A DNA stretch of 27,493 nucleotides, from IMG/VR virus record IMGVR_UViG_2703718834_000005, positions 1 to 27,493 of that record; one strand, given 5' to 3'. The position numbers were made by a program, and so were the translations under genes. Shown piece by piece: positions 4,298 through 22,484 of this stretch. A model generated the notes under the pieces. The model searched no databases. It saw nothing but the letters and a program-made list of their open reading frames with translations, and was not told the origin of the DNA. Within the stretch, counting starts at the first letter, position 1. The number at the start of each line of letters is the position of its first letter. The DNA comes from a virus (lineage: Duplodnaviria > Heunggongvirae > Uroviricota > Caudoviricetes).

Positions 4298-5569
4298 TTA
4301 CGGATTACCGAAGAACTGACCGCCCATGTGAGGGTTAAAGCACACATATGCAGGCAGTAAGTCGAAGCGCATTTTTTGCACGTTGGCATCGCCATCTGCG
4401 TATTTATGTACGCGGATGGAGAAACCTTCATATGTTGCAACAGCAGAATCAATACTGTGCAGTTTCGGCAGTGGGATAGAGCCAAGTCCACAGAAGAACT
4501 TGTTATAGAACAGGTTTGGCTTCATTGTCTGGCTAGCAGTGCCTACTACAGATACGGCATCGCCTGCCGCTACCTGACGACTTACAGAGTTGTACTGCGG
4601 GTTTGTAGTGTCATAAATCGGAACACCAGAAAGCGTAACCGTCACATCGCCACTGCCGTCTGAATCAGCATCAGCAGTAACCGTTGCAGTGAAGCTAATT
4701 GGTGTGGCTCCGTTATACAACGCCTGTTTGGTCTGCTGTTGCAGCCAGTAGGTATTGGTGAATTTAACCTGATCACCAGCTTTCAGAAAACCTGTAACGC
4801 TGGCTGTCGCTCCGGTCAATGTTACAGTGAACTGGTATGAGTCTTTAACTGCGTTATAGGTAACATTTGGCTGTGTTTTGACTGTCAGTGTTCCGCCAAA
4901 TGCCCCCTGCGTACGAGAGGCAAGCCCATTAGACATCAGTGCGCGAATGCCGCCAAAATTGGTTGGGATCTGTGCATTCTCCCATGCAGTACGAACCAAT
5001 TGATCTGAAGCGTGCAAACCAGTCTGCGCATCAGCAAGTCGCTGTGCAGACCATGGATCCATTACAGCATAGTTTTCACCTTCATTAACGCCGAGGTCTT
5101 TCAGGAAAGATGCCGTCTGCGCAACATCAGACCATTTGGTGATTGGAGTATTGGGGCTACCAAGTGACAACGCACCGTTATTCATCATGAAGTGAGCAAG
5201 CTCTGTTTCAAGGTCGGTAACGATTCGCTGGCGAACCGGCGCGAGAATTTCTTCCAGCTGGTTAAGCTTGATCGCTTCCTCCAGTTGCTGATATTCAACA
5301 GCAACAGTGATGTAGTTACCTACACGCCCCGTAGCTTTACCTGAGATCAGGTTGTTTTTATTTTGCCCTGAAATATCACCAGTGGGAGTACGGAGGGATG
5401 AGAATTGATGCGGACGTTTAAAGCTAACGCTATCGCCAGTGCTGGAGTTGATTTCACCTGCCAGCAACTGACGGTCTACGGTTTTCGCCAGAACTAAATC
5501 TGACATAAAACCCGGAAGGAATTTTTTCAGAACGATTTGACTGACGTTACTGTCGAGATTGTTAGGCAT
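4298..5569 (-). CDS. major capsid (coat) protein, P22 gp5 / Sf6 gp5-like
   Basis: 423 aa (Sf6 coat length); position between scaffold and gp4. Confidence 0.85.
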   Translation of the reverse strand: MPNNLDSNVSQIVLKKFLPGFMSDLVLAKTVDRQLLAGEINSSTGDSVSFKRPHQFSSLRTPTGDISGQNKNNLISGKATGRVGNYITVAVEYQQLEEAIKLNQLEEILAPVRQRIVTDLETELAHFMMNNGALSLGSPNTPITKWSDVAQTASFLKDLGVNEGENYAVMDPWSAQRLADAQTGLHASDQLVRTAWENAQIPTNFGGIRALMSNGLASRTQGAFGGTLTVKTQPNVTYNAVKDSYQFTVTLTGATASVTGFLKAGDQVKFTNTYWLQQQTKQALYNGATPISFTATVTADADSDGSGDVTVTLSGVPIYDTTNPQYNSVSRQVAAGDAVSVVGTASQTMKPNLFYNKFFCGLGSIPLPKLHSIDSAVATYEGFSIRVHKYADGDANVQKMRFDLLPAYVCFNPHMGGQFFGNP

Positions 5570-5580
5570 TTATCTTTTCC

Positions 5581-6465
5581 TTATTCGATTTTTGCGCCGG
5601 GGCATAATTTGTTGAATTCGTCTTGTTTCGCATCAGCACCGCCACCACGTACTTCCGGCTCTGGCTTGATGGCTTTCTTTGGTTTTGGAGCAAGGCTTAC
5701 CTGTTTGCTAATCTGCCCCAAGAGGAATGCTGCGCGAATTGGATCTGTCTCAGCGGCTACACGCTGGCGTAATTGCTGACTCTTACCTAAGCCATAGGCG
5801 AGTAGTTCAGAGCCTTCGTCTGCACAGTGAATGATGATTTCCTGCTGAATTGGTGGTAGCTCACTAAGAACAATGGCTTCCATTTCCTGATAATCTTTCA
5901 CAGGAAGTTTGGCTGCCCGTTGTTTATGCGCTTCTACCCTTTGCTGGAAACGCTGCTGGTATTCCTGTTGCTGACGTAGTTTTTGTTGCTGCTGCTGTTC
6001 GACACGGCCTTTTTTCTCATGCCAATCAGTCAATGCCTGTTCAAACGCCTGTTCGTCATAATCACACGACTCAAGAGTCGGTTTTGGTGGAATAGCGTCT
6101 GGTTGTGGTTGCTGATGTTCCGCTGGCTTGGCTAATGCTTCCTCAAGCTGGCGGCGCAACTCACGGTTTTCTTTCTGTGTTTCTTTGAAGCCTTTGCGAA
6201 GATCTTTCACCCATTGCGGTGCAGGTTGCCCGTCAATGTGATCATCATCGTCAGCGTTAAGCTGAATTTCTTCATCACCAATACGCAAGGCGTAATCTTC
6301 TGGTGTCTCTTCGGTTTTTTCAGGCTCAGTTGCCACCTCTTTACCGTTGTCATCCTGGCTTTCATTCTCAGGCTGTGACTCTGTTTGGATGATGGTTTCT
6401 TCTGCATTTTCCTGTGTTTCAGACAGGTCAATAACCTGACCGTCGATGATCAGTTCGTTTTCCAT
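5581..6465 (-). CDS. scaffolding protein
   Basis: 294 aa, highly acidic N-terminus, Gln/Glu-rich helical middle, basic C-terminus; between portal and coat. Confidence 0.75.
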   Translation of the reverse strand: MENELIIDGQVIDLSETQENAEETIIQTESQPENESQDDNGKEVATEPEKTEETPEDYALRIGDEEIQLNADDDDHIDGQPAPQWVKDLRKGFKETQKENRELRRQLEEALAKPAEHQQPQPDAIPPKPTLESCDYDEQAFEQALTDWHEKKGRVEQQQQQKLRQQQEYQQRFQQRVEAHKQRAAKLPVKDYQEMEAIVLSELPPIQQEIIIHCADEGSELLAYGLGKSQQLRQRVAAETDPIRAAFLLGQISKQVSLAPKPKKAIKPEPEVRGGGADAKQDEFNKLCPGAKIE

Positions 6466-6478
6466 TGATTACTCCTGG

Positions 6479-8605
6479 TTAACTCGGCATTAAGTCTGCC
6501 GGTGACTGTGGTGGTGACTGGAATTGCTGTTGTTGTGACTCGGCGACATCTTTCAGAAGGCGTATTGCCTCCATCACTGCTTTGTCATCGATGTTTCTGG
6601 CTTGAGCCAGTTTATAGACAGTGTTTGCCTGACTCTCCATCGCATCCTGCTGGGCAGTAAATGCTTTGATTTGAGTTTGAGCAGTTTCGTTAGTTGCTTT
6701 TTGCGCTTCTGCCTGCGCTGCTACCATTTGCGCCTGAGCGAGAACCATTTCAGGATTTGGCTGGCTTTGTGCTGCCATTTGCGCCTGTTGAACAATCTGC
6801 TGCTCTTTCTCATTGCGTGGTTTTGCAATGCCAGATATCAGCAGTTGGTTTCGGTTGTACTCTTTGAAGTCATCAAGGCCTTCGCCATCGATATTGTCCA
6901 GAATAATACCCTGAATTGCCGGACGCATTGGGTCTGTTGGAAGCATAGAGCTAAGGACATTTGTCAGTACAGAAACCGTTGCATCACGTCGTGCTGTGTA
7001 GCTTGGTCCAACATCAACCGTCACATCGTATCGACCGACAGAAAGGTCATTTAACGCAACAACAGCCCCTGTTTGCCTGTCAACAACCTGTGCGCTCAGG
7101 ACAGCGATATCATCACTTCCATCTTCGTTAACGATGCGCACTTCACGCTCTGAACCGTACACTTCACGCGCCATTGACAGCCATACTTCACCAGCTCGTT
7201 TAAGACTTTTCGCCATATTGTCCAGATAGATAAACGAAGCCATATCTGCTCTGTTCATCAAGTTGTTAACCGTTTCCTGAGCAATATTACTTGGCATCTG
7301 CTGCATGGCCTGACTGCCGCCTGTAACCTCCTGAATATCTGCACTGGTTTGCTGTAGTAATGCAGCCAATGCCTGATTCATAACCGCAGGCTGTGTATAT
7401 CCTGCCGGGGTAGCTCCAGCGATAATGTTGCCAGATTTATCTCTCACTTCGCGCAACGGCAAGAACGCTGGGCGTTTCTTGTTGCGAGCCTCCCAGTGCT
7501 TCTCAAGTCCACGAATTTGCTCCATGCCAACTATAGGAATCTGACCGGGGTCTTGCGCTGCAGTATCAGCCAGCATTGAAACCTGAAGGTTGTACAAACG
7601 CTGTGGATCCATTGCTTTTGCAATGTGCCCTTCGACACGCTCAATGTCATCAATGAACCAGCGTTTTCCATAAACCGGGATGAGGGGGATATGCTCACCA
7701 GGAATACGTCGAGGTTTCTCAAGGAAACCATCACCATCCACTACGGATACATACACACGACGGCGCTTCACTGAGCGCCTTGCCACTTCATGAAATCCAG
7801 CTATTGCCAGTTCATCTTCAATATCTTCAACCTGATCACTGTCGTATGTTGCAATCTCTCCAGTGATTGGATGTCGATAACTGATGACGTCAACAGACTC
7901 TTTACGAACTTCGTAATACTTCGCTATGTAAATAACATCTGCACCAAACCAGTTATATTCCCAACTGGTCATAGACGTTACATCCAGAGAAGTAGGAGGT
8001 TTCTTTCCGTATTCAGCCTCATATTTTTCTGGTGACAACGAATACATACAGAACGCCCACAACGCGTCAGATTTGTCGTACTTCTTAGCGTCAGGGTCAA
8101 ACCACACAGAGCGCGACGGGTCGTATATTGGTTCAATAGCAATACGCTGACGATCGTCCATGGGGTCGTATTCATTGACCAGCATCGACGTCAAACGGAA
8201 GCAACCGAAACCACCAGTAGCAGCGTCGTCAAATGCATTATCGCAAGCCTCACCGCCATCAGTTTCTTCGTAGTCAGCACGGAACAGACCATTTAATTTA
8301 TTGGCTAACTCTTCGCTTGCCTCTCTGTCACCAGGACGAAACTTAACGGTTATTCTGTTATTGCGGTATTCTGCAATGATGCGGTTAAGTTCAGTTGCTA
8401 CCTTATTGATTTCAAACTTAGGATACTTCTCGAACTGCTCATCAAGCTTAGTTCCAGCCGCCGTTGCTCCTTCCCATTGACCTCCGGGGACACGAGCAAA
8501 CCTCGTAGCTTCAATGCACTTTTCGCGCACTTCCTTCTGTGGAGAATAGGCGCGGTCAAACCTGAGCATGATCCGCTCATGTTTTTTCTCTAATGTCTCT
8601 GCCAT
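6479..8605 (-). CDS. portal protein
   Basis: 708 aa from ATG at 8605 (the track start at 8677 is a GTG 24 codons upstream); ATG lies 2 nt after the terminase large subunit stop; Gln-rich C-terminal barrel-like tail typical of P22-like portals. Confidence 0.9.
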   Translation of the reverse strand: MAETLEKKHERIMLRFDRAYSPQKEVREKCIEATRFARVPGGQWEGATAAGTKLDEQFEKYPKFEINKVATELNRIIAEYRNNRITVKFRPGDREASEELANKLNGLFRADYEETDGGEACDNAFDDAATGGFGCFRLTSMLVNEYDPMDDRQRIAIEPIYDPSRSVWFDPDAKKYDKSDALWAFCMYSLSPEKYEAEYGKKPPTSLDVTSMTSWEYNWFGADVIYIAKYYEVRKESVDVISYRHPITGEIATYDSDQVEDIEDELAIAGFHEVARRSVKRRRVYVSVVDGDGFLEKPRRIPGEHIPLIPVYGKRWFIDDIERVEGHIAKAMDPQRLYNLQVSMLADTAAQDPGQIPIVGMEQIRGLEKHWEARNKKRPAFLPLREVRDKSGNIIAGATPAGYTQPAVMNQALAALLQQTSADIQEVTGGSQAMQQMPSNIAQETVNNLMNRADMASFIYLDNMAKSLKRAGEVWLSMAREVYGSEREVRIVNEDGSDDIAVLSAQVVDRQTGAVVALNDLSVGRYDVTVDVGPSYTARRDATVSVLTNVLSSMLPTDPMRPAIQGIILDNIDGEGLDDFKEYNRNQLLISGIAKPRNEKEQQIVQQAQMAAQSQPNPEMVLAQAQMVAAQAEAQKATNETAQTQIKAFTAQQDAMESQANTVYKLAQARNIDDKAVMEAIRLLKDVAESQQQQFQSPPQSPADLMPS

Positions 8606-16924: not shown

Positions 16925-17097
16925 TTCCTCGCACGTTCTCTAAGCCACCGGATATCCCACAGGTGAGCCGTGTAGTTGAAGGTTTTTACGTCAGATTCTT
17001 TTGGGATTGGCTTGCGTTTATTTCTGGAGCGCTTCGTTGGAAGGTATTTGCAGTTTTCGCAGATGATGTCGGTGATACTTCGTCGCTGTCGTCTCAT
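16921..17097 (-). CDS. ninE: NinE (58 aa)
   Basis: internal ATG at 17097 gives [23 protein letters not shown]..., matching recalled lambda NinE; ATGA overlap with Dam stop; the track ORF extends upstream in an overlapping frame. Confidence 0.75.
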
Positions 17098-17621
17098 GCC
17101 GCCCTCCTGACGCCCTGCCCGATCGCCATCAATGCCGCTTTGGATACGGTAGTAAACATCCGTCGAGGACTGATGAACGGTCGCCAAATCAGCAGCATGG
17201 AGCCTTTGCTGTTTCCCTTCTTCTCCAGCCCTGTCGATGGTTCGATAAAATTAATCCGTCCATCAGTGATAATGCGAACTTCGTCGACACTCTCCAGAGC
17301 CTTGCTGAACCATCCGACTGACATATCCTCTGGCACAAGCATAACTACCGTCTGTCGCTGTTGTATGCACTGCTCAGCGGCTTTTTCCACCCACGGCCTG
17401 ATATTGCTGTACGGTGGGTTATTCCAGATTGCACCGTGGCTTATCCACTCAGAATTGAGCGCGTCGTCGGCCTCAGTTAGCCAGTGAGCGCACAGAGCAT
17501 TTTTGTCGCTCGCTGCCGAATCCAGCCAGAATCCAAACTCAATATCCAGTGCATCAAAAAGCCAAAGCGGTGTTTGCCAGCAGTCCTTGTCGTGTGCTGG
17601 CGTATTTGATTTGATAGTCAT
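17094..17621 (-). CDS. DNA N6-adenine methyltransferase (phage Dam-like, NPPY motif)
   Basis: 176 aa from ATG at 17621 (ATGA overlap with ninB stop); motifs DCWQTP near N-terminus and NPPY. Confidence 0.75.
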
Positions 17622-18058
17622 GCAGCCCGATCTCCCCATCGCGCTTTCCATTCGAGAGCCAGTCGCGCTTCGTCTGACCACTTAACGCCACGCTCTGTAC
17701 CGAATGCCTGTATAAGCTCTAATAGCTCCGCAAATTCGCCTACACGCATCCTGCTGGTTGACTGGCCTATTACCACAAAGCCATTCCCGGCAAGGTTAGG
17801 AACAACATCCTGCTGCTTTAATGCTGCGGTAAACACACACTTCCAGCTTTCTGCATCCAGCCAGCGACCATGCCATTCAACCTGACGAGAGACGTCACCA
17901 AGGCAAGCCCAAAGCTTCCGATTCTGGTCTAAGCTGCGGTTGCGCTCCTGAATGATCACTACGATTGGCTTGGTTGGGTCTGGAAGAATTTGCTGTACTG
18001 CGTGAATAGCGTTTTGCTGATGTGCTGGGGATCGAATTTCAAAGGTTAGTTTTTTCAT
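17618..18058 (-). CDS. ninB: NinB (Orf-family recombination mediator)
   Basis: 146 aa from ATG at 18058; near-identical to recalled lambda NinB. Confidence 0.9.
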   Translation of the reverse strand: MKKLTFEIRSPAHQQNAIHAVQQILPDPTKPIVVIIQERNRSLDQNRKLWACLGDVSRQVEWHGRWLDAESWKCVFTAALKQQDVVPNLAGNGFVVIGQSTSRMRVGEFAELLELIQAFGTERGVKWSDEARLALEWKARWGDRAA

Positions 18059-18074
18059 GACTTCCCTCTCCCCC

Positions 18075-18106
18075 AAATAAAAAGGCCTGCGATTACCAGC
18101 AGGCCT
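18075..18106 (-). terminator. tR2-like intrinsic terminator between helicase gene and ninB
   Basis: minus-strand AGGCCUGC-ugguaauc-GCAGGCCU followed by UUUUUAUUU. Confidence 0.65.
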
Positions 18107-18135: not shown

Positions 18136-20016
18136 TTAATACTCCGTCACGTTTTCCTGTCGCCACGCCTCGTCATATTCCGATTTCGGCATATTGGCGA
18201 TGTAGCTATATGGCGATCCTGATTCAAGTTGCAGGAACTGGTGCGATTGCTCGTCAAGGAACAACGGGACACCACCTTCCCAACCTTCGCCGTTACGTTG
18301 TTTTTCAAGCATCAAAACAGATGCCGGAGATGCCAGTAGCTGTTCGTCCTTCTCTGACATCTTTTCACCACTCTGAACTCTCTGTAACGCTCTCTCGCGA
18401 GCCTTGTTACGCCAGATGATGAAAAGGTTGTCTGTCAGGTCTGTTATCGCTCCAGAGCCTTTTACGTCCATTTTCCCGGTTGGTTTTTCTTCGCTGTCAC
18501 CTTTTCGCGAGTGAGTAACGAGAATGACGTGGGAGTTTGTTTTGTTTTTGAAATCGCAAATCGAGTCAACAAACGCCTTCTGCCCGTTATAGTCATCGTC
18601 GCCTATGCCACATTTCATCAGGCTGTCGATGATGAATAACTGGATGCCGTATCGGCGGCGAGCGTAGTCGAATATTTCGATCAGCCTGTCGGCTTTCGCC
18701 GTTCCGGTCAGGCCAAACACCCAAAGTCTTTCGTCATAAAATTTAAATGCAGAGTCAATTTCCAGCACTGGCGGCATCTTGCAGCACGTCGCCTGACGGG
18801 TAAGTCGCTTAAGGAGAATGCCTGGCTTCAGCTCAAGTGACGCGATGCACGTCTTCACACCCTGACGCATTGCCTCAAGTGCCATATGCCCGACAACCTC
18901 CGTTTTTCCGTGACCGTTCACACCATTGACCAGCGTCAACTCGGCCTCACGGAACTGGAATTTATCTGCCAGAGATTCCCACGGTGGATTAAACAGATAC
19001 TGCTGCTTGCCGTAGAAAGCGTTGATAGTGTCCTGGTAAAACTCTCGCGCGCTGTAGAGTTCTTCAGGATCGAAGTAGGATGCCGTGCCGATGTACTGCC
19101 AGATTTCATCCTCGGTAACACCGTTCATCAGGCATTCGTTGATGTCTTTGTACGGCAGAGTAACAAGACGGCAACGATGTTCACCGAGTCGGCTTGCGAT
19201 TTCCCTTGCGGCTTCACGACCAACATCATCAACGTCCATCGAGATGAATATTTCCTCAAACCTGTCGAGGTTGTGATACTCAAACTCAATCCACTGTTGC
19301 TTAGCGCCTTTCCCGCCACCAAACGGCACGGATAACGCCGAGATGCCGTATTGCGCATAGCTCATACAATCAATTTCGCCTTCGCAAAGTACAACCGCCC
19401 TTACGCCAGCGTCCAGAGCCTGCCATCCGAACAGACAAGGTTCGCAATCACCTTCTGCCATAATGACTTTCTTCCCGTCCGGGCGCTCAGTGCTGATTCG
19501 CTTGACCTGCAACAACTCACCATCGCGTTTGTACGGAAGCACCAGTGCATCAAGTTCTCGTTCTCCATTCCACACCTTGCCGCTGACAACCTCGTAGCGC
19601 TTTACGACTTCTGGCGATATGCCACGCGATTGCAGGTACTCAAGATGGGATTCTGTTCTGGTAACGTAGCGGGCGATTTTCTTGCGGTCAGGTCTGGAGA
19701 ATTTCTTCTCACGTTTGGCATCGAAATGGTGATCGTCATCCTTGATTCCGAGAAAGGCTTTCGCTTCCTGCATAGCCTGATGCAGGTTAATTCCACGACA
19801 TGCCATCCACAAATCAAGCATGTCACCGCCGTCTCCCTCAGCGAAATCAGCCCATTTTTTCTTGCCGCTAAGGTTGACCTTAAGGCTGTTTCCCTTGTCA
19901 CCGTTGACGTTACCGGCAACCCACTCATGCCCCTCTTTCTTGCCGTTTGGCAACAGGTGCGGAGCCACCCTGTCAACCTGCGCCCAAAGCAGGTCGCTAA
20001 GTTCACTTGGCGTCAT
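18136..20016 (-). CDS. bifunctional replicative primase-helicase (TOPRIM domain + DnaB/RecA-fold ATPase)
   Basis: 626 aa; TOPRIM-like VLCEGEIDCMS; Walker A GVNGHGKT and Walker B-like IIDSL in C-terminal half. Confidence 0.75.
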   Translation of the reverse strand: MTPSELSDLLWAQVDRVAPHLLPNGKKEGHEWVAGNVNGDKGNSLKVNLSGKKKWADFAEGDGGDMLDLWMACRGINLHQAMQEAKAFLGIKDDDHHFDAKREKKFSRPDRKKIARYVTRTESHLEYLQSRGISPEVVKRYEVVSGKVWNGERELDALVLPYKRDGELLQVKRISTERPDGKKVIMAEGDCEPCLFGWQALDAGVRAVVLCEGEIDCMSYAQYGISALSVPFGGGKGAKQQWIEFEYHNLDRFEEIFISMDVDDVGREAAREIASRLGEHRCRLVTLPYKDINECLMNGVTEDEIWQYIGTASYFDPEELYSAREFYQDTINAFYGKQQYLFNPPWESLADKFQFREAELTLVNGVNGHGKTEVVGHMALEAMRQGVKTCIASLELKPGILLKRLTRQATCCKMPPVLEIDSAFKFYDERLWVFGLTGTAKADRLIEIFDYARRRYGIQLFIIDSLMKCGIGDDDYNGQKAFVDSICDFKNKTNSHVILVTHSRKGDSEEKPTGKMDVKGSGAITDLTDNLFIIWRNKARERALQRVQSGEKMSEKDEQLLASPASVLMLEKQRNGEGWEGGVPLFLDEQSHQFLQLESGSPYSYIANMPKSEYDEAWRQENVTEY

Positions 20017-20120
20017 GATTCCCTCAGATTGAGATTTTTAAACCAGAAATCGACAAACGAAATACTTAACCAGCCGTGGTTATAACCAGCGACCAGTAGC
20101 GATTTGATTTTTGATTTCAT
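20013..20120 (-). CDS. possible small protein (35 aa) coupled between O-like and helicase genes
   Basis: ATG 3 nt after O-like stop with AGGTGA upstream; stop overlaps helicase ATG (ATGA); MKSKIKSLLVAGYNHGWLSISFVDFWFKNLNLRES. Confidence 0.25.
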   Translation of the reverse strand: MKSKIKSLLVAGYNHGWLSISFVDFWFKNLNLRES

Positions 20121-20123
20121 GGT

Positions 20124-20984
20124 TCACCTGTCGAAAAACACGTAGCCAGTTTTCGATACGGTGATTGCGGATGATGGTTTAGATTGTGGTTGAATAGTTT
20201 CTGGCTTCTCGTCGTTCCAGCGTTGACCGTTCAGGTAGCTCGATGGTAACAACCTGTCGAATCCGAACTGCTTACCATTCCTGCATGCGATGTCTTCTGC
20301 CAGCATCGTGGCAAACTCGCTTGCCGTACCCCTGGTAGTTTTACGCCATTCCCTGAACTGTGTTCTGAATGCCGAAGCTGCGTTTTTCTTCCCGGCTTTC
20401 CGCATGCCTGCACACCAGAATATTTCCTCGAATGCCTTGTCGGTTTCTTCGTGACGGTCAGGTGATTTTTCACACTCCGTCCGAACACTTTCGGACATAG
20501 TGTTTTTATTATTTCTTTTTTCTTTTGTAATAGTTTCTTTTGTGTGTCCCTGTTTTGGTGACAGCGCTGTCACCGTTTTGGTGACACTTTTTGTCACCAA
20601 TGCAGTGACATTATCACCAGAGTAGTGACACCCTTCGATTTGCCATTCCTCGATGTTCTTGTTAGGACCGATTTGCTGGCCTTCGCGAAGGATAACCTTC
20701 ATCGCGATAAGCTCATTCTTGGCCTTGTTTACCTTCTGTCTTGGCAGCCTGGTAATTTGAGCTAACTGACTATCAGAGATGCGATCCATCTTTTTACCGT
20801 AGCCGTATGTTTTACGGCATATGGCGTGGGCAACCTTGCTCTGATTTTTCGTTAAATCTGCGCCGATAAGCTCTTCATACAGGGCATTTGCAAGACGGGT
20901 ATAACCATCTTCAACTTCTGCCACACGACGCTCCACAGGCCGTTGTGAAGGCCTTAAATGTGTTACGGTTGCAAGATTACTCAT
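20124..20984 (-). CDS. replication initiator, lambda O-like N-terminal domain with divergent C-terminal domain
   Basis: 286 aa; N-terminal region (DGY.RL.N.L.E...GADLTK.Q.KV..AI.RKTYG..K.MDRI.DSQL..IT.LP) resembles recalled lambda O; iteron array lies inside the gene. Confidence 0.8.
20479..20633. promoter_or_regulatory. origin of replication: palindromic iterons, AT-rich region and flanking palindrome inside the O-like gene
   Basis: GGTGACAGCGCTGTCACC (20557..20574), GGTGACACTTTTTGTCACC (20580..20598), AGTGACATTATCACC (20604..20618), partial GTGACACCC; AT-rich 20500..20556; palindrome GTCCGAACACTTTCGGAC at 20479..20496. Confidence 0.8.
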
Positions 20985-21123
20985 GACCTTTCTCCTTCTG
21001 CATCAGCTTCACTTTTTCCAACTCAGCCCGGAATCGACCAGGCTGCTTGAAGCTGGACAGGAAGCGATCACGTAGTATGTGTTTGTGAATTTTGTCCTGG
21101 TAAGGACTGAGTTGTTTTGTCAT
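20977..21123 (-). CDS. hypothetical small protein (48 aa) between cII-like and O-like genes, not in ORF track
   Basis: AGGAG SD 5 nt before ATG at 21123; stop overlaps O-like ATG; [48 protein letters not shown]. Confidence 0.45.
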
Positions 21124-21155: not shown

Positions 21156-21452
21156 TCAGAATTGCATATCAATTTGCTTAAAATCCTCGGTGGCGGCCGG
21201 GGATTTTTTCTTTGTGATTTCATCAAGCGCATACTTAAAAGCCCTGCTAATCGGACTGATGTCTGATGCCATTCCGAAAGCACACAAGACCGAAGCAATA
21301 AATCTCCAGTCCGTTCTGCTTATCTTCGATTCATGACAGCCAATCATCTTTGCCAGACCGCGCTGGGTAAGCGTTGACAGGTTGATGAGTAAATCAGTTT
21401 CAGCGCGATCAATTTCTCGCTGTGTTGGCTTGCTGTAGCTTGCTTGTGCCAT
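21156..21452 (-). CDS. cII: CII-like lysogeny establishment activator
   Basis: 98 aa; HTH region and C-terminus [18 protein letters not shown] resemble recalled lambda CII (KKRPAATERSEQIQMEF). Confidence 0.8.
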
Positions 21453-21567: not shown

Positions 21568-21753
21568 TTATGCCGCTTGGCGGTAAGCACTTTCTTGATA
21601 CTTCAGGGCGCCAGCTGTAACGATTTCCAATCGATAGGCGTCTTTCTCTGGGATAACTTCTTTCCACTGAGAGACTGCTGCATCGCTAATGCCTAGTGCT
21701 TTAGCAACAGCACGCTGGGTTCCGAAGTGGTCAATAACATCTTTTTTGTACAT
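21568..21753 (-). CDS. cro: Cro repressor (P22 Cro-like)
   Basis: 61 aa; matches recalled P22 Cro; divergent from c2. Confidence 0.9.
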   Translation of the reverse strand: MYKKDVIDHFGTQRAVAKALGISDAAVSQWKEVIPEKDAYRLEIVTAGALKYQESAYRQAA

Positions 21754-21833: not shown

Positions 21834-22484
21834 ATGAATACACAACTGATGGGTGAGCGTATTCGCGCTCGCAGAAAAGAACTCAAGATTAGGCAGGCTG
21901 CCCTTGGAAAGATGGTTGGCGTGTCTAATGTTGCTATTTCCCAATGGGAGCGATCTGAAACTGAGCCCAATGGCGAAAACCTATTGGCCTTAGCCAAGGC
22001 TTTGCAGTGCTCCCCTGATTACCTGTTGAAAGGAGAGGATAGTCTTTCAAACATTGCCTATCACAGCAGGCATGATCCAAGAGGTTCGTATCCTCTAATT
22101 AGTTGGGTAAGCGCAGGATGTTGGATGGAAGCTGTAGAGCCATATCATAGGCGTGCAATAGATAACTGGTACGACACAACGGTAGATTGTTCTGAAGACT
22201 CTTTTTGGCTCGACGTTAAAGGCGATTCAATGACTGCCCCGGCAGGACTGAGTATTCCTGAGGGGATGATTATTCTCGTCGACCCAGAAGTCGAACCACG
22301 TAATGGAAAGTTGGTAGTCGCCAAACTTGAAGGAGAAAACGAGGCGACATTCAAAAAGTTAGTTATTGATGCCGGTAGAAAATTCCTGAAACCACTCAAT
22401 CCACAATACCCAATGATTGAAATCAATGGGAACTGTAAAATCATTGGCGTTGTCGTTGATGCCAAGCTAGCAAACCTTCCTTAA
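21834..22484 (+). CDS. c2: C2 repressor (P22 c2-like, HTH + LexA-type autocleavage domain)
   Basis: 216 aa; N-terminal HTH (QAALGKMVGVSNVAISQWERSE), C-terminal GDSM serine and KL lysine of S24 peptidase fold; matches recalled P22 C2. Confidence 0.95.
   Translation: MNTQLMGERIRARRKELKIRQAALGKMVGVSNVAISQWERSETEPNGENLLALAKALQCSPDYLLKGEDSLSNIAYHSRHDPRGSYPLISWVSAGCWMEAVEPYHRRAIDNWYDTTVDCSEDSFWLDVKGDSMTAPAGLSIPEGMIILVDPEVEPRNGKLVVAKLEGENEATFKKLVIDAGRKFLKPLNPQYPMIEINGNCKIIGVVVDAKLANLP

Follow-up and report, generated by a model that had tools for sequence, protein, structure and literature searches.

How does a lambda-O-type initiator work when the gene downstream of it encodes a primase-helicase and not a P-type helicase loader, and is such a pairing new? 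The window considered here is the whole stretch of 27,493 nucleotides that was analysed. Its replication module, together with the small gene that precedes it, lies on the minus strand and is read in the order given:

20977..21123, minus strand: 48-aa DUF2740 gene between cII and O (Pfam DUF2740, E 9e-29)
20124..20984, minus strand: O-like replication initiator gene, 286 aa, which holds the origin (ORF and Phage_rep_O match)
20013..20120, minus strand: 35-aa ORF, homologue of ES18 gene 60 (PHROG 21848 match)
18136..20016, minus strand: primase-helicase gene, 626 aa, of the T7 gp4/Twinkle family (domain and structure-sequence matches)

The DUF2740 gene, whose positional counterpart in ES18 is gp58, overlaps the start of O by 8 nt. 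From the O stop to the ATG of the primase-helicase the distance is 107 bp, and besides the primase-helicase the 35-aa ORF is the sole ORF listed between O and ninB. This small ORF is translationally coupled on both sides, and its stop overlaps the primase-helicase ATG. The first-pass annotation had described a 107-bp gap with a coupled 35-aa ORF, and coordinates and spacing are as it claimed. The module contains no P-type loader, DnaB-like helicase or DnaC-like loader. No DNA polymerase gene is present in the 27.5-kb window, and the flanks of the module carry virion, nin and early-left recombination genes. Taken as a whole, the explanation that we consider likely is that the module is the early-right-operon replication cassette of a P22-like (HK620/Sf6-like) lambdoid prophage of the ES18/mEp043 type.

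The cassette itself is already known and is an ordinary, catalogued one. By megablast the DNA is collinear with and 99% identical to mEp043 and Sf101, and about 88% identical to ES18. The same three-gene cassette is found in Salmonella phage ES18 (genes 59-60-61), in epsilon34 (genes 50-52), g341c and SEN22, and in the E. coli/Shigella phages mEp043 and Sf101, and the order in ES18 is as here: cII, small ORF, O-like gene, 35-aa ORF, primase-helicase and nin genes. The ES18 record describes the two larger products as ‘similar to phage lambda gpO’ and ‘putative primase/helicase; similar to phage T7 gene 4’. The epsilon34 homologues were named origin-binding protein and putative helicase, the N-terminal domain of the former being 94% identical to lambda gpO aa 17–148 (PMC2629481), and an O-like protein with a primase-helicase is a standard P22-like replication type (2023, PMC10307801). 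The combination of an O-type initiator with a primase-helicase thus stands as first described, but it is a long-recognised standard type and the term ‘hybrid replication module’ oversells it.

A related type, Eru5, is defined among Stx phages (PMC8951638). The Eru5 phages Stx2a_F403, Min27 and phi24B share the same 35-aa ORF, their primase-helicase is 94–97% identical and the C-terminal domain of O is 97.5% identical. However, in the initiator of Eru5 the N-terminal domain is HTH_36 (as in Stx2a_F403), with GC-rich iterons, where the window has Phage_rep_O, and by the two proteins next to cI that define Eru5 the window does not belong to it. The Eru5 primase-helicase reaches 968 aa, as its Walker A motif is split by an intein that carries a LAGLIDADG endonuclease. 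None of the Eru1–3 types of Stx phages (PMC8044961) corresponds to the module; Eru5 does so in part.

The O-like protein is divided as follows:

20643..20927, minus strand: N-terminal winged-helix domain, predicted to bind the origin, aa 20–114 (Pfam and TIGR01610)
20199..20456, minus strand: C-terminal helical core domain, aa 177–262 (HMMER search and AlphaFold model)
20127..20198, minus strand: C-terminal tail, aa 263–286, ending in …GYVFFDR (tail motif comparison)

Phage_rep_O (PF04492) matches aa 20–114 with E 1e-37, TIGR01610 phage_O_Nterm matches the protein with E 2e-30, and BLASTP aligns it with lambda O at 49% identity across aa 1–157. The domain search that had been proposed for an O-type N-terminus therefore returns one, and the lambda-O-like N-terminal domain is indeed kept. 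In the AlphaFold model this domain has a pLDDT of about 90 and consists of helices and a β-hairpin; the C-terminal core reaches 94–98. Between them a predicted disordered linker, aa 110–164, corresponds exactly to the stretch that encodes the iterons and the AT-rich tract. In the model O thus consists of two separate domains, a winged-helix N-terminal one of lambda-O type and a helical C-terminal one, with the predicted disordered linker between them. Foldseek of the full-length model against the PDB gives no match at E <= 0.001, and CRP/MarR-type winged-helix proteins are the only matches, all with E >= 0.019.

The linker-coding stretch and its downstream side contain three elements:

20545..20630, no strand: four 19-bp palindromic iterons (repeat search and pattern search)
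20497..20544, no strand: AT-rich tract, presumed DNA-unwinding element (composition and position relative to the iterons)
20472..20503, no strand: inverted repeat flanking the AT-rich tract, arms 20472–20485 and 20490–20503 (repeat search)

The iterons lie at 20545–20563, 20568–20586, 20592–20610 and 20612–20630 and follow the consensus TGTCAC-N7-GGTGACA. This pattern gives 7 strand-matches in the 27.5-kb window against 0.02 expected, none of them outside the array. The AT-rich tract of 48 bp is 81% A+T, compared with 52% for the window, and the arms of the inverted repeat are 86% complementary. By alignment the array is in register with the lambda-type iterons of ES18, the AT-rich tract holds the position relative to the iterons that it has in the annotated lambda/ES18 ori, and in the ES18 record the homologous stretch is a rep_origin with the note ‘similar to lambda ori’. 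Since iterons and AT-rich tract (20497–20630) encode the linker of O, the origin lies inside the O gene, where the first-pass annotation had placed it. ES18 and epsilon34 combine an N-terminal domain of lambda specificity with lambda-type iterons, whereas the window, mEp043 and Sf101 pair a domain 49% identical to that of lambda O with their own TGTCAC-N7-GGTGACA iterons.

Compared with lambda O-P and ori-lambda, the N-terminal domain is homologous and the operon position is the same. Lambda likewise has four 19-bp palindromic iterons, an AT-rich tract and a palindrome inside the initiator gene, encoding a flexible linker. Unlike lambda, the module has an unrelated C-terminal domain, no P homologue and an extra 35-aa gene, and the phage-encoded primase-helicase would take the place of hijacked host DnaB. 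The divergence of the C-terminal half, also claimed at first, is borne out: BLASTP finds no similarity to lambda O beyond aa 157, the match to PHROG 277 covers only profile positions 1–182 of 318, and the C-terminal 123 aa alone have no Pfam match at E <= 10. Remote homology was rejected as well. With hhalign, a core profile of 64 sequences reaches a probability of 0.07% against the C-terminus of lambda O, which entered as a single-sequence target and leaves room for a very remote kinship. In ES18-type relatives the C-terminal 123 aa are 96–100% identical (100% in mEp043 and 96.7% in ES18 gp59).

As an initiator module the C-terminal core is generic. An exhaustive HMMER search of representatives finds it in 363 clusters, almost always at the C-terminus of proteins of 240–340 aa, behind HTH_36, Phage_rep_O, DUF1376, DnaD_N and other N-terminal domains. 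One match, with ten matching stretches in a protein of 6,594 aa, is a compositional artefact of a Gly/Asp-rich repeat protein. Core copies at 31–50% identity precede DnaB-like helicases, DnaC-like loaders, P-like loaders or no partner, and as a diagnostic of a primase-helicase partner the core is ruled out. Any specificity for the helicase must then reside on a finer scale, for instance in the tail at the very C-terminus or in the 35-aa protein. The tail motif G(Y/E)VF(F/V/I)..D is common to initiators linked to a primase-helicase, while other tail motifs replace it where the partner is a DnaB-like helicase or a DnaC-like or P-like loader.

Among close relatives the linkage is strict. The primase-helicase directly follows a closely related core in 80 of 80 IMG/VR loci and in 15 of 15 GTDB loci (those with a core >= 58% identical), and all 80 IMG/VR loci hold core, 35-aa ORF and primase-helicase together. 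Their N-terminal halves are of three types, the window type, the lambda type (about 94% identity) and HTH_36, and the GTDB loci show at least five. As one cassette, the C-terminal domain moves together with the 35-aa gene and the primase-helicase, and it stands behind at least five different N-terminal/iteron units. A mosaic junction lies between the iterons and AT tract on one side and the palindrome on the other; the inverted repeat falls on the shared side and is kept in ES18 and Stx2a_F403. The N-terminal half has been exchanged repeatedly at this junction, only about 50 bp from core and tail. Part of this strict association in close relatives is trivial, since the genes are neighbours. 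Primase-helicases at 60% and 40% identity follow unrelated initiators that lack both this core and the 35-aa gene. Among complete E. coli genomes about 5% (286 of 5,426) carry the module.

The 35-aa protein matches PHROG 21848 (E 4e-26) and no Pfam or NCBIfam model. Its 15 homologues are each exactly 35 codons long with 8 invariant residues, and substitutions among them number 1406, 893 and 1832 at codon positions 1, 2 and 3, highest at position 3. The ORF is present in all 80 viral loci of IMG/VR. In the 15 GTDB loci it is intact in 13, fused in 1 and absent in 1, and one Providencia locus lacks the gene. It is found only where this core and this helicase co-occur, and is absent with other initiators. 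One tentative and rather doubtful proposal is that the unannotated 35-aa protein and the O tail form a minimal dedicated adaptor docking a gp4-type primase-helicase on a lambda-type O-some; replication would then need none of host DnaB, DnaC, DnaG and the DnaK chaperone system, and a gp4-like enzyme would cooperate with host DNA polymerase III.

The first-pass annotation presumed that the divergent C-terminus of O recruits the phage's own helicase rather than host DnaB. This is plausible, as the linkage into one cassette favours it, but it is tempered by the finding that the core is generic across partners. The core may instead have no contact with the helicase and serve initiation in general, for instance through oligomerisation, remodelling of DNA or binding of a host factor, the helicase loading itself or arriving through the 35-aa protein alone. 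The breadth of the core, 363 representative clusters behind many N-terminal domains and beside four partner classes or none, fits such a role, as does the fact that T7 gp4 rings load on single-stranded DNA without a loader. Moreover, a 2025 survey of 314 lambdoid phages reports 34 in which an O homologue is accompanied by neither helicase nor loader (PMC12315714). Yet among close relatives core and tail are never parted from the primase-helicase despite the N-terminal exchange, and the tail motif varies with partner class. In lambda O, too, the C-terminal domain is the P-binding part. On balance we think a core free of helicase contact unlikely and prefer recruitment by the C-terminal part of O.

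Whether the recruited enzyme also primes depends on the 626-aa protein, in which three regions can be delimited:

19732..19941, minus strand: zinc-less homologue of the zinc-binding domain, aa 26–95 (TIGR01391 and T7 alignment)
19087..19689, minus strand: primase RNA-polymerase/TOPRIM domain, aa 110–310 (Toprim_2 and T7 alignment)
18235..18954, minus strand: SF4 (DnaB/gp4-type) helicase domain, aa 355–594 (AAA_25, DnaB_C and T7 alignment)

Pfam places Toprim_2 at aa 209–296 (E 3e-12) and gives AAA_25 above and DnaB_C slightly under the cutoff. PHROG 239 ‘DNA primase/helicase’ matches with E 2e-171; phmmer matches the T7 gp4 structures (PDB 5ikn/6n7i) to aa 192–539 with E 3e-23, and Twinkle matches with E 7e-14. 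The N-terminal 204 aa alone have no Pfam match at E <= 10, while TIGR01391 dnaG model positions 27–155 align with aa 26–143. In the primase region K172, K182, E212, D261, D263 and D291 align with T7 K122, K128, E157, D207, D209 and D237, and these six residues are invariant in five sequences. In the helicase domain K371 (Walker A), the catalytic glutamate E395, D464 (Walker B), H502 of motif H3 and the arginine finger R574 correspond to T7 K318, E343, D424, H465 and R522 of the RecA-type fold. At the level of aligned sequence the tested TOPRIM and helicase catalytic residues are all intact. The domain search proposed at first therefore finds both primase and helicase signatures, the protein is a TOPRIM and Walker A/B helicase as read initially, and it has no similarity to lambda P, again as claimed. 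Like T7 gp4 and Twinkle, it is predicted to join a DnaG-type primase region, TOPRIM and a RecA-type hexameric helicase domain in one polypeptide. It differs from T7 gp4 in its identity of about 25%, the loss of the zinc ligands, a longer N-terminal region and a C-terminal extension. T7 replication starts from transcription at its origin, whereas the enzyme here belongs to a temperate phage without its own polymerase and is encoded behind a predicted dedicated origin-binding initiator.

The designation ‘bifunctional’ holds for the TOPRIM and helicase residues, but priming is not assured, since all four zinc ligands are absent: T7 C17, C20, C36 and C39 are replaced by A34, V37, C73 and I76. None of the homologues in Fraca, Vibrio 1.167.O and Pseudomonas CF24b keeps the ligands either. 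In T7 the zinc ligands are needed for template recognition by the primase. The protein could accordingly be a replicative helicase only, its primase domain silent or turned to another role (compare metazoan Twinkle), with primers made by host DnaG. The replaced and unconserved ligands fit this, and T7 gp4 in the form that lacks the zinc domain is inactive as a template-directed primase. However, the TOPRIM acidic residues and the lysines (T7 K122/K128) stay invariant down to 25% identity, and the strong conservation of the zinc-less N-terminal domain, seen in the motif GKSLKVNL..W.DFA.G..GD.LDLW, speaks for a function that has been kept. Plasmids, too, carry zinc-less DnaG-like primases. We therefore judge a helicase-only protein improbable. 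In P22 genes 18-12 an O-like initiator is likewise paired with a phage-encoded replicative helicase without a loader (PMC10307801), but that helicase is DnaB-like and, unlike the 626-aa protein, has no primase domain; it works with host DnaG according to the literature. That the module is a decaying prophage remnant with replication lost is very improbable indeed: some relatives are disrupted (an IS3-family insertion in one, split genes in another), but the three window ORFs are intact, mEp043, which forms plaques, has a primase-helicase and a C-terminal part of O that are 100% identical to those here, and the DNA matches mEp043 and Sf101 as closely as given above.

In the reading that we prefer, transcription from pR would deliver O, the 35-aa protein and the primase-helicase together. 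Dimers of O would bind the iterons and open the AT-rich tract, like the lambda O-some. The C-terminal part of O, probably through its tail and possibly with the 35-aa protein, would then bring the hexameric phage primase-helicase to the opened DNA, and this would replace the O-P-DnaB route of lambda. The enzyme would unwind and probably prime, and host DNA polymerase III holoenzyme would synthesise the DNA. We infer that O may contact the helicase, that the helicase may load itself and that the process may be independent of DnaB and DnaG; the papers searched contained no experiment or biochemical study on the module.

As a discovery the module carries little weight, for sequence records have contained it from 2005 on. 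Some value lies in its use as an experimental system. A swappable N-terminal/iteron unit meets a fixed C-terminal/35-aa/helicase unit at the origin, which provides natural chimeras for tests. It also occurs in medically relevant Stx2a phages of the Eru5 type, for which it has been suggested that the type of replication module affects how stable the prophage is and how much toxin is made.

The replication module is part of a lambdoid prophage's early right operon, where all genes except cI are on the minus strand:

21834-22484, plus strand: cI
21568-21753, minus strand: P22-type cro
21156-21452, minus strand: cII
20977-21123, minus strand: 48-aa DUF2740 gene between cII and the O-like gene, overlapping the O start by 8 nt
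20124-20984, minus strand: O-like gene, 286 aa
20013-20120, minus strand: 35-aa ORF
18136-20016, minus strand: 626-aa ORF
17618-18076, minus strand: ninB
17094-17681, minus strand: dam-type methylase

Virion, lysis and nin DNA of HK620/Sf6-like type fills the left 17 kb of the window, and an early-left operon (N, cIII, RecT, Gam) is at the right end, which makes the element a P22-like lambdoid prophage. The DUF2740 gene is labelled 'tail protein' in RefSeq phage records and in PHROG 1913. This label is implausible because the gene sits in the early replication operon, and it looks like a propagated misannotation.

The first-pass annotation described this module accurately, in its domain calls as well as in the position of every element. 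The O-like protein has the lambda-O-like N-terminal domain that was proposed (Pfam Phage_rep_O, aa 20-114, E 1e-37; also TIGR01610). Identity to lambda O is 49% across aa 1-157, and past aa 157 there is no similarity, in agreement with the claim of an unrelated C-terminal half. The iterons and AT-rich region are indeed inside its coding sequence. Four 19-bp palindromic repeats, TGTCAC-N7-GGTGACA, occupy 20545-20563, 20568-20586, 20592-20610 and 20612-20630; the pattern gives 7 strand-matches versus 0.02 expected from shuffling, and a pattern search finds it nowhere else in the window. The adjoining AT-rich tract is 48 bp with 81% A+T (window mean 52%), and beyond it is a palindrome with 14-bp arms. 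The order of iterons, AT-rich tract and palindrome is the same as in ori-lambda. In the AlphaFold model, a confidently predicted winged-helix domain is followed by a disordered linker (aa 110-164), which corresponds exactly to what the iterons and AT tract encode, and then by a confident four-helix C-terminal domain (aa 177-252, pLDDT 94-98).

The 626-aa protein was read earlier as a TOPRIM-helicase rather than a P homolog. The domain search finds Toprim_2 and AAA_25, with DnaB_C just under the cutoff, and similarity to lambda P is nil. PHROG 239 'DNA primase/helicase' matches at 2e-171, and solved structures of T7 gp4 (E 3e-23) and Twinkle match aa 165-539. For an alignment of the protein with T7 gp4 and with three homologues (41-62% identity), we used residue numbers and roles from the T7 literature; a script check showed the named residue to be present in T7 at every position. 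The conserved residues include the primase lysines (T7 K122 and K128, window K172 and K182), the TOPRIM acidic residues (E157, D207, D209 and D237; E212, D261, D263 and D291), the Walker A lysine (K318; K371), the catalytic glutamate (E343; E395), the Walker B aspartate (D424; D464), the motif H3 histidine (H465; H502) and the arginine finger (R522; R574). The T7 zinc ligands C17, C20, C36 and C39 align with A34, V37, C73 and I76, and none of the four positions is conserved among the homologues. Even so, this zinc-less N-terminal region is a homologue of the zinc-binding region of DnaG and is well conserved in its own right. Loss of the zinc ligands favors one of the two main alternatives, that the protein is a helicase-only enzyme dependent on DnaG. 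Helicase function is a safe prediction; primase function is likely but not assured.

Past the T7 gp4 structure match, aa 540-626 (18136-18400, minus strand) form a C-terminal extension of about 85 residues, the end of which is an acidic/aromatic tail, …SEYDEAWRQENVTEY. In T7, an acidic C-terminal tail with a terminal Phe binds gp4 to the phage polymerase, and the end of the window protein recalls this tail; by this analogy, the extension could be a site of contact with host polymerase III or SSB. In Stx2 phages of the Eru5 replication type (Stx2a_F403, L002:2840-5746) and some IMG/VR prophages, the protein is 968 aa long. An intein of about 342 aa, with Hint and LAGLIDADG endonuclease domains, sits inside Walker A of this form between K371 and T372; its first residues are Ala-Cys-Pro and its last His-Asn. 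It is also found in the IMG/VR loci L017, L026 and L091 at about 5544-6532, and is absent from the window copy. In another IMG/VR prophage (L070:5217-6468), the primase-helicase is broken at residue 263, within the DxD motif of TOPRIM, by an IS3-family-like insertion sequence of 1.25 kb that contains a transposase ORF and, read in the helicase frame, numerous stops.

The 107-bp gap between the two large genes holds the coupled 35-aa ORF noted previously: it starts at an ATG 3 nt past the O stop and ends in a stop codon that overlaps the ATG of the next gene (ATGA). Fifteen homologues (42-97% identity) each have exactly 35 codons, and in every one the stop abuts or overlaps the helicase ATG. 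M1, K6, L9, G12, Y13, G16, F27 and R33 are invariant in the consensus MK...K.LL.AGYNHG.LS..FV...F....LR. Differences by codon position 1/2/3 are 1406/893/1832, most at position 3, and the other reading frames have many stops. This comparative evidence shows the ORF to be a real gene. Neither Pfam nor NCBIfam has a match to it; it is annotated in ES18, epsilon34 and g341c, and unannotated in RefSeq E. coli genomes (PGAP) and several phage records.

In Stx2 phages the stretch common with the window runs only from the primase-helicase to about 20508, and in ES18-type phages to about 20557. In a three-way alignment of the window, ES18 and Stx2a_F403, the iterons upstream of the junction are type-specific (TGTCAC-N7-GGTGACA in the window, lambda-type ATCCCTCAAAA-GAGGGA in ES18, GC-rich GGGGCAGGAGCTGCCC in Stx2a_F403), while the sequence from the AT tract end onward is common to all three. 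Among 80 IMG/VR loci with at least 98% identity in the C-terminal helical domain ("core", O aa about 179-268), every one continues with the 35-aa ORF and then the primase-helicase (75 intact, 3 with intein, 1 IS-interrupted, 1 cut by the contig end), behind three N-terminal types. The primase-helicase (59-99% identity) is also next in 15 of 15 GTDB loci with core identity of at least 58%, from Shimwellia, Leclercia, Erwinia, Pantoea, Citrobacter, Enterobacter, Serratia, Providencia and others. These carry five or more N-terminal classes, and 13 of the loci have an intact 35-aa gene, one has a fused copy and one has none. Since this gene occurs only where core and primase-helicase adjoin, an adaptor or assembly role is the most attractive guess. 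In Providencia alcalifaciens (L105:4290-4330), a core-bearing O-type initiator is followed after about 10 nt by the primase-helicase (68% identity) with no 35-aa gene, so the small protein is not universally required.

The core itself is a generic domain. An exhaustive HMMER search gives 363 representative clusters, where it almost always forms the C-terminal end of proteins of 240-340 aa; 64 sampled members carry HTH_36, Phage_rep_O, DUF1376, DnaD_N and other N-terminal domains. At 31-50% identity the neighboring gene varies by locus. It encodes a DnaB-like helicase in L108-L110, a DnaC-like loader in L111-L113 and in Pseudomonas phage Skulduggery, a P-like loader in L115 and in Vibrio phages D65 and PVA1, and a primase-helicase in L125. 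Six GTDB loci (L114, L116-L120; Vibrio, Roseovarius and other prophages) have no recognizable helicase or loader beside the core, and NinB, methyltransferase or Q-like genes directly follow the initiator. They echo a recent survey, in which 34 of 314 lambdoid phages encode an O homologue but lack any helicase or loader (PMC12315714). Primase-helicases of Vibrio phage 1.167.O (60% identity) and Pseudomonas phage CF24b (40%) follow initiators without the core and lack the 35-aa gene. This variety of partners favors the other main alternative, a general initiator role for the core with no direct helicase contact. Past a conserved stretch, tails C-terminal to the core read ...G(Y/E)VF(F/V/I)..D... 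in primase-helicase-linked initiators and differ in DnaB-, DnaC- and P-linked ones (e.g. ...DLEWLTDPNNYPRI, ...PDWAKDL, ...TIDL..GDFY.V). The tail motif may track partner class, a lead only, because the sample is small and phylogenetically uncorrected. The earlier proposal that the O C-terminus recruits the phage's own helicase is reasonable, not specific, and indirectly supported by the cassette structure.

By analogy with lambda O and T7 gp4, we infer that O dimers would bind the four iterons and distort the adjoining AT-rich tract. The C-terminal part of O (core and tail, perhaps with the 35-aa protein) would recruit the phage's hexameric primase-helicase, which would take the place of the P-DnaB complex, unwind the DNA and probably prime. 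No DNA polymerase gene is present in the 27,493-nt window, and synthesis would therefore be by host polymerase III.

The module is a standard lambdoid replication type, already known because it was annotated before and is nearly identical to known phages. By megablast, mEp043 and Sf101 are 99% identical over the whole 3.2-kb region, vB_EcoP-720R6 98% and SEN22 92%; ES18, epsilon34 and g341c match about 80% of it at about 88%. The ES18 record describes gene 59 as 'similar to phage lambda gpO' with an internal rep_origin 'similar to lambda ori'. Its gene 60, of 35 aa, has the note 'function unknown', and its gene 61 the note 'putative primase/helicase; similar to phage T7 gene 4'. The epsilon34 paper gives the same reading (PMC2629481), and the same helicase defines the Eru5 type, represented by Stx2a_F403 (PMC8951638). 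Of 5,426 complete E. coli genomes, 286 carry the whole module. Our literature search found no report of its biochemistry or genetics. Its remaining value lies in the loading of a gp4-type helicase onto an O-type origin, in the role of the 35-aa protein and in whether a primase domain that lacks zinc can prime.
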